Shown here: piece after piece, positions 6,700-11,714 of the stretch
Position numbering within the stretch: the stretch's first letter is position 1
Layout: every line of letters starts with the position of its first letter
Assembly (NCBI RefSeq): GCF_003019035.1
Contig: NZ_CP027447.1
Direction: 5' to 3' (one strand)
From: Escherichia coli
GTDB lineage: Bacteria; Pseudomonadota; Gammaproteobacteria; Enterobacterales; Enterobacteriaceae
DNA: 64,000 bases
Made by a program: the position numbers and the translations under genes
The notes under the pieces: generated by a model
The model's database searches: none
What the model was told of the DNA's origin: nothing
Seen by the model: only the letters and a program-made list of their open reading frames with translations

Positions 6700-7035
6700 T
6701 TAACTTTTGGTCATTTCACAAAGCGTATAATTTAATAAGCGTCCTAAACCACTGACGGTTTGTGATAACGCTTCTTCTACTGCGCCCACCGAGCCATAAA
6801 TCACCAGCGCGCCGCTAAAACGGTCGAGAAAACCGATATGCACATCGGCGGCTTTCAACGCTAAATCACCGGCGATCATCGCCGTTTCTCCGGGAGTTAG
6901 CGTCATAATGCCGATTGCGCCCGCATCCGGAACGCCGATTTTCTTCGCCAGTTCCTCGCCGGGATGCGCGATGAGATGCGCCAGTGTGACCTGTTTACCG
7001 GGCACAAATTCCTGAATGATGCGTTCTTTATCCAT
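6700..7035 (-). CDS. eutS: Microcompartment shell protein EutS (permuted BMC domain)
   Basis: Start placed at [10 protein letters not shown] giving 111 aa (ORF track extends to 7107); first gene of the eut operon. Confidence 0.9.
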
Positions 7036-7400
7036 GAGTCGCCGCCTGTGAAAAACTTTCGTGTATCGTGACAATTTTTCGTCAGAGTAAATAACAAAAT
7101 TCGGCAAGCGCGTTTAAAAGGTGAGGTAGATCACTAAGAATGGAGAGATATTTTATGTTAAGAAAAAAAACATACATTGTATGAATATAAACGGGAACCA
7201 ATAAGTTTTGTTTATCATATGTACTACAACATCTTTTAATAATCCCTCGAATCACCCGACGTTGTATTTTTAATAATTAGCAGAATACATATTTAATGTA
7301 CTGTTGTATTCTGAAAAATATTATTATCTTCACCCCATTTAAAATACATCTTACGCGATGATTTTATTCAGGAAATAAATAAAATGGATGGATCCCTGGA
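7036..7400. promoter_or_regulatory. Divergent AT-rich control region: eut operon promoter (minus strand, upstream of eutS) and promoter/leader of the inserted glycosyltransferase gene (plus strand)
   Basis: Non-coding, very AT-rich stretch between divergent genes; the eut main promoter lies upstream of eutS in enterobacteria; exact -35/-10 elements not assigned. Confidence 0.5.
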
Positions 7401-8471
7401 ATGAAAATTCACTACCTTGTCACCACCCTCGAAGCGGGAGGCGCTGAATTTGCGATTCCTGATATTGTGACTACTCTGCAAGACCTTGGTCATGAGGTGA
7501 AAATTTATGTCTGTGAACCCCGCGATATGGGAGCAGCGCCTCGTCTGGAAGCCGCTGGATTATCCTGGTGTTTATTATCAAATCGGCGGCGTTCTGAACC
7601 CATGCTTGTAGCTGCTTATCTGGCAAAAATCATTCACGACAAACCCGATCTCATCTGGACTTCGTTAAGTTGGGGGACTCGTATTGGGCAATGGGTCGGC
7701 CGGCTTATGGGCATTCCTGTTATCAGTTTTAAACATAGCGCCAGCGTAAAACCAGCGACCTGGCGTATGCGCAACATGTCTCGTTTATGGATAGGAGATT
7801 CTGAAACCGTAGCTCAATACCTGCATGAAACCATGTTGATCCCGAAGCAACAAGTGCTGTGCTGGCCCTTTTTTCAGGCGAATCCGCAAGCTGCCCAAGC
7901 GCAAAACTGGGACGGGAAATCAGTTTTACAATTAGGCTCTGTTGGACGCCTGCATGAAGTTAAAAATTACGCTGGATTAATTACAGCACTCGCTTCGTTT
8001 GTAGATAAAAACCCGCAATTGCGCTCGCGAATCCGATTAACCATTCTCGGTGAAGGGCCTGAACAGGAAGCATTGCAAAAAACCATAACGCAACACGCGT
8101 TGGAGGATGTGGTTTGTTTAGCGGGTTTTTCTGCGGATGTCGAAAATTTTCTTGCCGGATTACATGTCTACATCCAGACCTCCCGCTACGAAGGGATGTG
8201 CCTCGCTGCACACGAAGCCATGAATGCAGGGCTTGCAATCATCACGACTCCTGTAGGCGAACTTAAAGAATCGGTAATAGATGGTCATACTGGATATACG
8301 CTTAATGGCGAGCTAACGCCAGCGCTGGAGGGTGTGCTTAACCGTATTTTAAGTGAACCCGAAGAATTAGAACGCTATGGGCAAAATGTGCGGCAGTATG
8401 TATTAGCGAAGTTCAGCCATGAAAATTTTGTCCAGTCTGCAATCAACATCGTCAATAGACTTATTCACTGA
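7401..8471 (+). CDS. GT-B fold glycosyltransferase (GT4-like), accessory gene
   Basis: 356-aa ORF; C-terminal retaining-GT signature (SRYEGMCLAAHEAMNAGLAIITTPVGELKESVIDGHTGY, an E-x7-E-like motif); no signal peptide; weak ribosome-binding site. Confidence 0.8.
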   Translation: MKIHYLVTTLEAGGAEFAIPDIVTTLQDLGHEVKIYVCEPRDMGAAPRLEAAGLSWCLLSNRRRSEPMLVAAYLAKIIHDKPDLIWTSLSWGTRIGQWVGRLMGIPVISFKHSASVKPATWRMRNMSRLWIGDSETVAQYLHETMLIPKQQVLCWPFFQANPQAAQAQNWDGKSVLQLGSVGRLHEVKNYAGLITALASFVDKNPQLRSRIRLTILGEGPEQEALQKTITQHALEDVVCLAGFSADVENFLAGLHVYIQTSRYEGMCLAAHEAMNAGLAIITTPVGELKESVIDGHTGYTLNGELTPALEGVLNRILSEPEELERYGQNVRQYVLAKFSHENFVQSAINIVNRLIH

Positions 8472-8484
8472 ACAAGGCAGAAAA

Positions 8485-9387
8485 ATGAATTGCTATACCA
8501 CCGATCTTTGGCAGATAGGCATTGTTCAGGCCCCCATACAGCACATTGTTGCTTCTGGCAGTTTGGATGGCTTCAGGATTAAATGGATTACCCCGGATAA
8601 ATCACTCACTTTTCTTGCCGATCCTTTCGGTCTGTGGAAAAAAGGGGTTCTCTATCTTTTCGCGGAATCCTACGATTATCGGACTCGTCGTGGCGATATT
8701 ATCGCTTATAAGCTCAATGCTGACCTGGACGTCATTGAGCAACGAACTGTGCTACAAGAACCCTGGCATCTTTCTTATCCTTTTGTGTTTGAAGCCGATA
8801 ACGAAATCTGGATGTTACCTGAAGGATATAAATCAGGTACGCTAACGTTGTACCGCGCTATAGAGTTTCCCTGGCGATGGGAAAAGGTGCCAGATTTTTC
8901 ATTCCCTTGCGCTGCCATTGATGCCACCCCCTTTTACGCACAAGGAAAATGGTGGATGTTTTATACTCCCCCACTACCAAAGGCAGCCAGGACGGATACG
9001 TTAATGCTCGCTCATGCCCCCCATTTTATGGGGCCATGGGAAAACGTCCTGCAAACTGCCGCGCACAGGAATAAAAGCGGCGCGCGTATGGGCGGAACAC
9101 CATTTGATCATGATGGGCAAATTTTCTTACCAACACAAGATTGCAGCCGAACCTACGGTGGCGCATTGCAGATGCTGACACTAGACCCACAACGTTTATT
9201 AACTCCAGAATTTGCTGCCTCTGTGCGCCTGGAAGTGCCTGCAAGTGCCGCGCCTTTTATTGCTGGCATGCATACGCTTTCTGGCGTTGGCGACGTAACA
9301 TTCATTGATGCCAAGCGACACCTTAAAGGTTCGCCTCAGCGATTATGGGTGGATTTGCAGCGGCGGATACAGAAGTGGATCAGCTAA
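8485..9387 (+). CDS. Uncharacterized protein, probable five-bladed beta-propeller glycoside hydrolase/phosphorylase-like (GH43/GH130-type fold, inferred)
   Basis: 301 aa from the ATG at 8485 (ORF track starts earlier at 8419); N-terminal blade-like motif FLADPFGLWKKGVLYLFAE with conserved Asp/Glu and many Trp/Tyr/Phe; no signal peptide; 13 nt after the glycosyltransferase stop. Confidence 0.65.
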   Translation: MNCYTTDLWQIGIVQAPIQHIVASGSLDGFRIKWITPDKSLTFLADPFGLWKKGVLYLFAESYDYRTRRGDIIAYKLNADLDVIEQRTVLQEPWHLSYPFVFEADNEIWMLPEGYKSGTLTLYRAIEFPWRWEKVPDFSFPCAAIDATPFYAQGKWWMFYTPPLPKAARTDTLMLAHAPHFMGPWENVLQTAAHRNKSGARMGGTPFDHDGQIFLPTQDCSRTYGGALQMLTLDPQRLLTPEFAASVRLEVPASAAPFIAGMHTLSGVGDVTFIDAKRHLKGSPQRLWVDLQRRIQKWIS

Positions 9388-9390
9388 ACC

Positions 9391-9416
9391 GCTTACCCTG
9401 AATATTCAGGGTAAGC
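9391..9416. terminator. Perfect 26-bp palindrome (GCTTACCCTGAATATTCAGGGTAAGC), likely bidirectional terminator between the convergent accessory gene and maeB
   Basis: Exact inverted repeat read directly from the sequence, between two converging stop codons; no strong U-tract. Confidence 0.5.
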
Positions 9417-9434
9417 GTGAGAGTTAAGAATGAA

Positions 9435-11714
9435 TTACAGCGGTTGGGTTTGCGCTTCAACCACAGCCAGCGCCACCATGTTGACGATACGACGTACCGA
9501 TGCGATCGGCGTTAACACGTGAACCGGTTTCGCCACGCCCATCAGCACCGGACCGACAGTCACACCTTCCGAGCTGGAAACGCGCAGTAAGTTGTAACTA
9601 ATGCGGGCAGCTTCCATGTTCGGCATCACCAGAATATTAGCGGAACCTTTCAAAGGGCTGTCCGGCATACGGTCGTTGCGAATCGCTTCCACCAGCGCTG
9701 CATCGCCGTGCATTTCACCATCAATCATCAGTTCTGGCGCACGTTCCCTGACCAGTTCCAGCGCCTGACGCATTTTGCTCGACGACGGGCAGTCAGAAGA
9801 ACCAAAGTTGGAGTGCGACAACAGAGCCACACGCGGTTCAATACCAAAACGACGAACAGTTTCTGCCGCCATCAAGGTGATCTCCGCCAGCTCTTCTGCA
9901 TCAGGCTCATCATTGACGTAGGTATCGGCAATAAAGGTGTTACCACTCGGCAACAGCAGCGCGTTCATTGCACCTGCGGTGTGAACGCCATCGCGATAAC
10001 CAAAGACATTTTTCACCACGCTAAAGTGTTCATGATAATCGCCCACCGTACCGCAAATCATTGCATCGGCTTCGCCACGCTGAACCATGATCGCGCCGAT
10101 CACTGTCGGGTTACTGATCAGCGCACGCTGCGCCTGCTCCTGAGTGACACCGCGACGCTTCATGATCTGGAAGTATTCGGTCCAGTACTCTTTAAAGCGC
10201 GGATCGGATTCGTTATTGACGATCTCAAAATCAACACCCGCTTTGATCTGCAAGCCCAGTTTCTGAATGCGCATTTCGATCACGTTCGGACGACCAATAA
10301 GAATCGGTTTCGCCAGTCCCAGCGTTACCAGTTCCTGAGTGGCATGCAGAACGCGCGCCTCTTCCCCTTCCGGCAGAACGACGCGCTTCGGCGCTTTGCG
10401 AGCCTGGGAGAAAATCGGCTTCATAAACAGGTTGGTTTTGTAAACGAACTCCGTCAGCTTGTCGATGTAGACGTCGAAATCAGCAATCGGACGCGTCGCC
10501 ACGCCAGACTCCATCGCCGCTTTCGCCACCGCTGGAGCGATCTTAACGATCAAGCGCGGATCAAACGGTTTTGGAATGATGTATTCCGGACCAAAGCTCA
10601 GATCCTGATCGCCATACGCTGAAGCCACCACTTCACTCTGTTCCGCATGGGCCAGTTCTGCAATCGCGCGTACTGCCGCCAGTTTCATCTCTTCGTTGAT
10701 GGCGGTTGCGCCAACGTCCAGCGCGCCACGGAAGATAAACGGGAAGCAAAGGACGTTGTTCACCTGGTTCGGGTAGTCGGAACGGCCGGTACAGATGATG
10801 GCATCCGGACGCACTTCTTTCGCCAGCGGCGGCAGAATTTCCGGTTCCGGATTCGCCAGCGCCAGGATCATTGGTGCCCGAGCCATTTTCTTCACCATTT
10901 CCTGGGTCAGCACTTTCGGGCCGGAACAACCCAGGAAAATATCCGCGCCTTCAATCACATCATCGAGGGTACGTTTGCCGTCATCCACCACCGCATATGC
11001 GGCTTTGGTTTCCGCCATATTTGGCTCACGGCCCTGATAGATAACGCCTTTTGAATCACAAACCACGATGTTATGTTTTTGCAGCCCCAGCGCCACCAGC
11101 AGGTTCATACAGGCGATTGCTGCTGCACCCGCGCCGGAAACCACCATCCGCACGTCGGAGATGTTTTTCTCCACCACGCGCAATCCGTTGAGGATGGCGG
11201 CAGTGCTGATAATTGCCGTGCCGTGCTGATCGTCGTGGAATACTGGAATATTCATCCGCTCGCGCAGTTTCTGTTCAATATAGAAACATTCTGGCGCTTT
11301 AATGTCTTCGAGGTTGATGCCGCCGAAGGTCGGTTCAAGCGCGGCGACGACTTCAATAAATTTGTCCGGGTCGAGTTCATCAACTTCAATGTCAAATACA
11401 TCAATCCCGGCGAATTTCTTAAACAGAACGCCCTTGCCTTCCATCACCGGTTTGCCTGCCAGCGCGCCAATGTTGCCTAACCCCAGCACCGCCGTACCGT
11501 TAGAGATCACCGCCACCAGGTTACCACGCGCGGTATATTTGTAGGCTTTTAACGGGTCTTTTTCGATTTCAAGACAAGGTGCGGCAACGCCTGGTGAGTA
11601 GGCCAGCGCCAGATCGCGCTGCGTTGCCAGAGGCTTGGTTGGAGAAACCTGGATTTTCCCTGGAACTGGAAATTCATGGAAATCAAGTGCACTTTGTTTT
11701 AACTGGTCATCCAT
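9435..11714 (-). CDS. maeB: NADP-dependent malic enzyme MaeB (malic enzyme domain fused to PTA-like domain)
   Basis: 759-aa ORF starting [28 protein letters not shown]. Confidence 0.96.

Follow-up and report, generated by a model that had tools for sequence, protein, structure and literature searches.

A GINT1_N beta-propeller protein encoded beside a GT4 glycosyltransferase in the eutS-maeB spacer of Escherichia coli

Between eutS and maeB, the 64,000-nucleotide stretch of E. coli chromosome analyzed here (the window) carries an open reading frame (positions 8485-9387, + strand) that follows a glycosyltransferase gene. A previous reading of the DNA letters, made before any database search and called here the sequence-only reading, had noticed in the encoded protein features of GH43/GH130-like beta-propellers. 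It had proposed that the protein, if of the phosphorylase type, could set the level of a cytoplasmic glycoside together with the upstream glycosyltransferase. To which family does this protein belong, on what kind of substrate might it act, and which reaction might it carry out beside its neighbor?

A two-gene unit between eutS and maeB

The eut operon occupies the − strand of the window up to eutS, which ends near position 7035. An AT-rich region (7153-7400, ca 31-33% GC) forms the left end of a 2.2-kb segment that is absent from K-12. The promoter of both genes is presumably located in this region; a simple scan for the sigma-70 consensus found no site. The first gene of the unit (7401-8471, + strand) encodes a 356-residue GT4 glycosyltransferase, of the retaining type and GT-B fold, which is the conserved partner of the propeller gene. 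The intergenic spacer (8472-8484, + strand) is only 13 nucleotides long and shows an AAGG motif 9 nucleotides before the ATG of the propeller gene. As judged from this layout, the two genes most likely share a transcript, from which they would be translated in tandem. On the other side, maeB (9435-11714, − strand) is convergent with the propeller gene. A perfect palindrome of 28 nucleotides with a 12-bp stem (9390-9417) is located between the two convergent genes and is kept in K-12. Its folding energy is -23.7 kcal/mol, with a z-score of -7.2 as compared to shuffled sequences. It is likely to be a terminator shared by the propeller gene and maeB.

The propeller open reading frame corresponds to 300 residues followed by a stop codon; the 301 residues counted earlier included the stop. 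In the RefSeq/PGAP annotation, translation starts at the ATG at position 8419, which gives a protein of 322 residues and a 53-nucleotide overlap with the upstream gene. However, about 160 homologues start at the methionine encoded at 8485, and nearly all homologues are ca 300 residues long. Because the homologues begin at this same methionine and because of the AAGG motif upstream, we consider 8485 a better start than 8419. The open reading frame is far beyond chance, as indicated by the number of its homologues (1,531 in one search, 9,675 representative clusters in another), by its Pfam match and by a confident AF2 model (see below).

The motifs singled out by the sequence-only reading are all found in the translation: FLADPFGLWKKGVLYLFAE corresponds to residues 43-61, FEADNE to residues 102-107 and WMLPEGY to residues 109-115. 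The richness in aromatic residues is also real, with Trp, Tyr and Phe amounting to 13.3% of the residues. The absence of an export signal was recovered as well. In a Kyte-Doolittle scan with 19-residue windows the highest mean is 1.08; no hydrophobic segment, hence no signal peptide or transmembrane helix, was detected in the propeller protein. The protein is thus predicted to be cytoplasmic. The view that it is not a named E. coli protein is right for K-12 but not elsewhere, since entries exist in RefSeq (WP_224053104) and in UniProt (A0A0A1A6U8). RefSeq labels WP_224053104 as [quoted passage not shown].

Comparison of the GT4 enzyme with NCBIfam gives sub-threshold matches to TIGR03088 (2e-34), EpsE, BshA, MshA and GlcN-PG synthase. 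Its sequence relatives in the PDB are MshA, BshA, TarM and GtfA, weak matches to enzymes that transfer GlcNAc. The orthologue in Shimwellia contains the Pfam domains Glyco_transf_4 and Glycos_transf_1. An origin of the locus in a defence system or in a phage was considered and rejected: PADLOC returned no matches, and the only PHROGs match, for the GT4, is a generic glycosyltransferase family.

Of 5,426 complete E. coli genomes, 83 contain the 2.2-kb segment (7153-9380) with at least 99% identity, always in the eutS-maeB spacer. When the query also spanned part of maeB, 90 of the 5,426 genomes covered at least 80% of it. Among the carriers are ST648 and other isolates, obtained from humans, birds including poultry, pigs and wildlife, with one dolphin. 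In some lineages the cassette is decaying. Six genomes have a GT4 gene with 88% identity and a propeller gene devoid of its first ca 385 bp, one isolate has IS1 inserted in the propeller gene, and in one further isolate only the flanks are left. The cassette is absent from K-12, where the eutS-maeB spacer is identical to the window up to position 7152 and then resumes at 9381. From 9381 onward, K-12 has the last two codons and the stop codon of the propeller open reading frame, then the 28-nucleotide palindrome. This junction looks like a deletion scar. Because the K-12 spacer has retained the end of the open reading frame together with the palindrome, the GT4-propeller pair is probably old in E. 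coli and was lost from most lineages, rather than being newly acquired.

Family, fold and conserved funnel residues

The protein matches Pfam family PF24793 (GINT1_N) with an E-value of 5.3e-35 and a score of 121 bits. The match extends from position 58 to position 252 of the 304-position model and spans residues 43-234 of the 300-residue form. The GINT1_N domain is also precomputed in every close homologue of the protein; NCBIfam contains no model for it. A search of 1.84 billion representatives counted 9,675 PF24793 clusters at 50% identity, distributed in Proteobacteria, many other phyla and plants. The propeller gene is a plain member of an already named, functionally uncharacterized family. 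Our literature search found no paper on the GINT1_N propeller domain or on any bacterial member.

The AF2 model, built with 55 homologues, has a mean pLDDT of 96.5 and a pTM of 0.93. Except for a C-terminal helix, the modeled protein is all-beta: five blades of four strands each surround a central funnel. This is the fold of the five-bladed propeller CAZymes of families GH43, GH62, GH32, GH68, GH117 and GH130. The model confirms the five-bladed propeller anticipated by the sequence-only reading, for which a predicted structure other than a propeller would have been a refutation.

However, the protein belongs to neither GH43 nor GH130. Foldseek comparison with all solved structures gave TM-scores of only 0.5-0.59, the best structural neighbors being GH130 phosphorylases. 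The GH130 family PF04041 is absent from the Pfam matches even at E-values up to 10. The GH43 family PF04616 appears with E-values of 0.003 and 0.28 only, as out-of-register fragments. To examine GH43 membership further, we built an alignment of the YagH family and compared it with the propeller-family alignment using hhalign. The global comparison gave nothing, and the local one gave out-of-register blade matches with probabilities of 22% at most. The propeller belongs to a separate family inside the propeller superfamily that also contains GH43 and GH130.

Conservation was scored over a set of family members, 159 of them stand-alone and 88 fused. In this set, thirteen polar residues show no or almost no variation: D46, E61, H95, Y98, E113, D146, R201, Q218, D219, Y224, H263, T264 and D275. 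Stand-alone and fused forms are only 25-45% identical overall, yet all thirteen are kept. According to the AF2 strand map, they correspond to the starts of the inner strands and the ends of the second strands of all five blades. Such positions line the central funnel in the propeller superfamily. The presence of invariant polar residues at funnel positions of five blades argues for catalysis rather than mere binding. Trp9, Gly204, Gly225 and several prolines are also conserved in the same set of sequences.

We then compared these residues with the catalytic residues of related propellers. At the level of sequence only, the ADPF motif, which contains D46, matches the DP motif of 4qqs and of YagH, where GH43 enzymes have their general base (z-score 2.3, p 0.03). 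The resemblance to the first blade of GH43 enzymes, with their catalytic base Asp, is thus weakly supported. When blade segments were compared with YagH, those of blades 1, 2 and 4 were weakly significant and those of blades 3 and 5 non-significant; a sensible alignment was obtained for blade 1 only, the alignments of blades 3-5 being statistically unreliable. By strand topology, D146 may occupy the site of the second Asp of GH43. The inner strand of blade 4 reads R201-M-G203-G204-T-P, with Gly or Ala at position 203 and Gly at position 204 family-wide. Mapped by strand topology, the position of the GH43 general-acid Glu (E186 of YagH) is held by this Gly or Ala, after the invariant Arg201. 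On this topological basis, the general acid of GH43 appears to be missing in the propeller family. In blade 2, the presumed position of the GH130 catalytic Asp is held, by topology, by an invariant Tyr. Arg201 is the only invariant arginine of the family. Phosphate binding in GH130 phosphorylases involves several basic residues, and with a single invariant arginine a GH130-type multi-Arg phosphate site is not evident. A metal-dependent amidohydrolase would be equally compatible with the two invariant histidines and the many carboxylates. The putative roles given below to D46, D146 and R201 derive from strand topology and short motif matches.

Outside the propeller, residues 284-299 form a cationic amphipathic helix. 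It is conserved as the last 15-18 residues of the stand-alone proteins, with a mean hydrophobic moment of 0.62 and a net charge of +3.8, and is the strongest amphipathic cationic window of the E. coli protein. This basic helix probably holds the propeller at the inner face of the membrane.

Gene neighborhoods and fusions in relatives

Profile HMMs were used to score 92 loci, from 80 species genomes and other loci. In 69 loci, no more than 400 bp separate the propeller gene from a GT4 orthologue; the number rises to 77 when distances up to 3 kb are allowed. Three different gene orders are observed. No GT4 is found within 7 kb in 14 of the 92 loci, which belong mostly to some Acetobacter species and to truncated contigs. 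In addition, one natural protein (P0208) is a propeller-GT4 fusion. The adjacency in 69 of the 92 loci and the fusion substantiate the functional tie to the upstream glycosyltransferase proposed by the sequence-only reading. The pairing is strong, but the 14 loci show that it is not universal. An association of PF24793 with a glycosyltransferase is also that of the plant founder protein of the family.

Two further partners are recurrent. A homologue of Wzx-type flippases is found within 3 kb in 32 of the 92 loci, and a conserved 410-residue GT-B-like protein within 3 kb in 34. The latter, encountered in Alphaproteobacteria, has faint GT-B-like Pfam matches and no relative in the PDB. In Alphaproteobacteria, the pair belongs to small loci in which additional GT-B enzymes and a Wzx-type flippase are also encoded. 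The Sphingobium pair is convergent and adjoins genes for a Polysacc_synt flippase and a DedA-type protein as well as an MprF-like gene. In Acetobacter, the order of the pair is reversed and the two genes are inside a larger glycosyltransferase cluster. Propeller genes of relatives directly adjoin Polysacc_synt flippase genes, and in P0259 a Wzx-type flippase, a formyltransferase-like domain and the propeller are parts of a single chain of 1,018 residues. The bare GT4-propeller pair is found in unrelated chromosomal settings in Shimwellia blattae and in a Halomonadaceae genome. These minimal cassettes, like that of E. coli, contain no flippase, no canonical deacetylase and no second glycosyltransferase.

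Among the best 150 of the 9,675 clusters, most proteins have ca 550 residues, with the propeller located after a domain of ca 250 residues. This N-terminal domain has a weak match to Fmt/ArnA and a formyltransferase fold, a lead toward an amine substrate. The lead was abandoned since the positions of the catalytic Asn-x-His, flanked by Trp and Phe, are not conserved. As judged from these sequences, the domain is probably not an active formyltransferase. Some of the fused relatives stand alone or beside an MFS transporter, with no glycosyltransferase nearby. The heterogeneous contexts of the fused relatives do not sharpen the function.

The closest relatives belong to Sphingomonadaceae, Caulobacterales and Acetobacteraceae, which are sphingolipid producers. 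Together with the family name and the GlcN-GlcA motif of Sphingomonas glycosphingolipids, this raised the possibility of a sphingolipid substrate. We rejected it because the enterobacterial and Halomonadaceae carriers are not expected to have such lipids. Our literature search found no gene assignment for the Sphingomonas glycosphingolipids.

Possible reactions and known systems

The flippases fused to or neighboring the propeller, the further glycosyltransferases and the cationic C-terminal helix together point to a lipid-linked envelope glycoconjugate and not to soluble catabolism. We consider it very probable that the GINT1_N propeller is an active cytoplasmic CAZyme that forms a unit with the GT4 enzyme, and that it would work at the inner face of the membrane, on a lipid-linked sugar before flipping. 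The GT4 enzyme would put the first sugar on a lipid-linked acceptor, which could be a membrane lipid or else an intermediate linked to undecaprenyl. Before the outward flip, the propeller would then carry out the next step on the sugar installed by the GT4. In E. coli, the two genes would constitute a self-contained cassette using common host precursors.

As for the chemistry, we tentatively propose a displacement at the anomeric carbon, that is, a glycosyl transfer resembling that of GT108/GH130. The base that activates the acceptor hydroxyl would be Asp46, located on the blade-1 inner strand and partnered by Asp146 of blade 3. With Gly or Ala after Arg201 in place of the GH43 acid Glu, an anionic leaving group is expected. 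Arg201 and the Gly-rich turn would accommodate such a phosphate-type leaving group with no acid present. It could be a sugar-1-phosphate, or a nucleotide or polyprenyl phosphate. The propeller would thus be no classic hydrolase but an inverting glycosyltransferase, or a phosphorylase working toward synthesis, by which a second sugar is added. Beta-propeller glycosyltransferases are rare, which counts against a transfer reaction. The single invariant arginine, the 14 loci devoid of a nearby GT4 and the fused relatives found with no glycosyltransferase also count against transfer by a unit formed with GT4. Transfer is favored by the properties of the GH130 enzymes closest in structure, which use both mannose-1-phosphate and GDP-mannose (PMC12814180). 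Overall, a lipid-linked substrate combined with a GT108/GH130-like transfer is the best explanation that we can offer, while falling somewhat short of being probable.

The main rival, a close one although in itself rather unlikely, is that the propeller is an N-deacetylase. The partner glycosyltransferase would add GlcNAc to a lipid-linked acceptor and the propeller would leave a cationic GlcN. The reaction would probably be metal-dependent, via His95, His263 and carboxylates, and the flippase, where present, would export the product. The two invariant histidines and several invariant Asp and Glu residues are consistent with such a reaction, as is the GlcNAc transfer carried out by the closest solved relatives of the GT4 (MshA, BshA, TarM and GtfA), even if these are weak matches. 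No canonical deacetylase is present in any context inspected. Moreover, the glycosyltransferases to which the domain is joined belong to unrelated families, GT4 in bacteria and, by Pfam name, GT64 in plant GINT1. In the case of plant GINT1, it has been predicted that GlcNAc is first transferred and then deacetylated on the assembled lipid, and no deacetylase was named (PMC9113257). The combination of a glycosyltransferase, a deacetylase and a flippase is established in gpgSDF and hexSDF (PMC11483062) and is mirrored by GT4, propeller and flippase. A propeller-fold deacetylase also exists (6n1b), but it is a weaker structural match than GH130 and GH43 enzymes and has 7% identity with our protein. 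The formyltransferase-like domain, with its non-conserved Asn-x-His, lends no support to an amine substrate, and the GT4 is not an orthologue of GpgS, with a score of 30.8 bits versus a GlcN_PG_synth cut-off of 480. It appears rather doubtful that GINT1_N propellers are a new N-deacetylase family always acting behind GlcNAc-transferases, which would provide the missing conversion of GlcNAc-GIPC into GlcN-GIPC in plant sphingolipid synthesis and produce cationic glucosaminyl lipids in bacteria. If this were true, the E. coli carriers would get a GlcN-decorated lipid or lipid-linked glycan and an altered surface charge.

The model derived from the sequence-only reading, a soluble phosphorylase or hydrolase that would degrade or recycle a small glycoside produced by the GT4 as part of a storage or compatible-solute cycle, now appears improbable. 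The protein is indeed cytoplasmic as predicted, GH130 phosphorylases are its best structural neighbors and the minimal cassettes have no flippase. Many carrier taxa also inhabit environments rich in sugar (Rosenbergiella from nectar, Acetobacteraceae, insect symbionts), and GT4 includes enzymes resembling sucrose-phosphate synthase (6kih is among the matches). However, there is no GH130 Pfam match, the GH43 acid position is, by topology, not a carboxylate and only one arginine is invariant. The conserved unit contains no sugar-phosphate phosphatase or transporter, and a two-gene operon encoding both a synthase and the enzyme that degrades its product would amount to a futile cycle. Setting the level of a cytoplasmic glycoside also fits poorly with relatives in which Wzx-type flippases and polysaccharide glycosyltransferases are fused or adjacent to the propeller, and with the conserved basic amphipathic tail, which argues for a membrane location. 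Finally, a non-catalytic carbohydrate-binding or scaffold subunit positioning the GT4 or its acceptor, although several propeller domains of the superfamily became binding modules and the GT4 pairing is tight, up to fusion, is very improbable in view of the thirteen invariant polar residues (four Asp, two Glu, two His and one Arg among them) that ring the funnel over five blades, a conservation typical of catalysis and not of binding.

Whether glycosyl transfer to a lipid-linked substrate or N-deacetylation is considered, the question extends beyond E. coli. The family is very large and wired into glycoconjugate loci, and the reaction of the propeller is uncharacterized in all members. The E. 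coli cassette is the simplest test bed, with two genes and no dedicated precursor genes; sister lineages are natural knock-outs and K-12 is an empty host. Solving the cassette would reveal either a second propeller-fold glycosyltransferase family or a new deacetylase family. In the latter case, an open step in plant sphingolipid glycosylation would be closed. One would also learn whether an extra envelope glycolipid or glycan is carried by some E. coli lineages, ST648 among them.

Among known systems, GH130 beta-mannoside phosphorylases and dual phosphorylase-transferases (Teth514_1788, Uhgb_MS) and GT108 mannosyltransferase-phosphorylases share the fold, but identity is 14%, the Foldseek TM-score is ca 0.57, PF04041 is not matched and no multi-Arg site is evident among the invariant residues of the propeller. 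With GH43 enzymes (E. coli YagH, Geobacillus XynB3), no in-register alignment was obtained and, by topology, the acid Glu is replaced by Gly or Ala. The context of the propeller is biosynthetic and cytoplasmic, whereas that of GH43 is catabolic. The propeller-fold deacetylase 6n1b, from Flavonifractor plautii, is a GalNAc deacetylase that acts on a blood-group glycan. It is presumably a secreted enzyme with a carbohydrate-binding module.

The gpgSDF system, which makes GlcN-phosphatidylglycerol in P. aeruginosa, and hexSDF of C. difficile follow the same logic as that seen in many relatives, with a glycosyltransferase, a tailoring enzyme and a flippase. gpgSDF is portable, acts on ordinary host lipids and works when moved into E. 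coli; the GpgD gene is annotated as a deacetylase in the PA14 genome (PMC11483062). In the E. coli cassette, apart from the low GT4 score given above, there is no recognized deacetylase Pfam domain and no flippase. The likeness is one of logic only.

Plant glucosamine inositolphosphorylceramide transferase 1 (GINT1), the namesake of PF24793, acts in the Golgi lumen on GlcA-inositol-phosphoceramide. Here, the homology is clear and the domain likewise travels with a lipid-decorating glycosyltransferase. GINT1 is a GT64 enzyme (PMC9113257) of which the GINT1_N domain is, by Pfam name, the N-terminal part, whereas the E. coli protein is free-standing, cytoplasmic and encoded beside a GT4. Of this very widespread module, the E. 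coli cassette represents the minimal form, and one that is amenable to genetics.

Start codon and downstream flank of the propeller gene

The propeller gene (8485-9387, plus strand) starts at 8419 in the RefSeq/PGAP annotation, which gives a 322-residue product and a 53-nt overlap with the upstream glycosyltransferase (GT4) gene (7401-8471, plus strand). No Shine-Dalgarno sequence is found at the 8419 start. The ATG at 8485 is favoured because the homologues and an upstream AAGG agree on this position, which argues that the 22 N-terminal residues of the publicly annotated protein are probably a false extension. On the downstream side, a perfect 28-nt palindrome (9390-9417; dG -23.7 kcal/mol, z -7.2) separates the propeller gene from the convergent maeB gene (9435-11714, minus strand). 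It was overlooked by a simple terminator scan because no T-run follows it.

Probable loss of the cassette in K-12 and natural knock-outs

A 2.2-kb segment (7153-9380) is missing from the eutS-maeB spacer of K-12 (L098, 2780-3130), where an unrelated, AT-rich sequence of about 125 bp stands in for it. K-12 retains the final 9 nt of the propeller ORF as well as the palindrome downstream. From this comparison of sequences, the K-12 state looks like an old deletion and not like an insertion in the carriers.

Two kinds of naturally occurring knock-outs of the propeller gene were found in other E. coli isolates. In MS 21-1 (L092, 3772-5442), the allele is divergent, with 80-88% identity; the GT4 gene is intact and the first ca 385 bp of the propeller gene (8486-8871 in the window) are absent. 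In isolate 624 (L099, 2019-3535), an IS1 element interrupts the propeller gene in its 5' portion, within an otherwise identical cassette.

Neighbours and fusion partners in relatives

In Sphingomonas, Caulobacter and Acetobacter, a conserved 410-residue protein adjoins the propeller gene (L053, 7949-9181, and 33 other alphaproteobacterial loci). Its Pfam matches are GT-B-like and faint (Glyphos_transf, E 0.0035) and no relative was found in the PDB, so that we regard it as a third uncharacterised partner. Three Gluconacetobacter loci (L040, L057 and L068) carry, a few kb downstream of the pair, genes that by eye resemble a fatty-acid hydroxylase, a diacylglycerol/sphingoid kinase, a MobA-like nucleotidyltransferase and LptF/LptG permeases. 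These resemblances hint at a membrane-lipid theme.

In most members of the family, the N-terminal domain (ca 250 residues) has the formyltransferase fold (P0146, P0155 and about 85 others; none in the window). Its catalytic Asn and His positions vary, and the Trp and Phe beside them are conserved; the domain is apparently a pseudo-formyltransferase. The "formyl transferase" annotation of relatives often stems from it. Some relatives join the propeller in a single chain to GT4 (P0208, 847 residues) or to a Wzx-type flippase (P0259, 1,018 residues; L011 and other loci encode such P0259/P0208 chains). The flippase fusion would anchor the soluble enzyme domain directly on the transporter of lipid-linked oligosaccharides.
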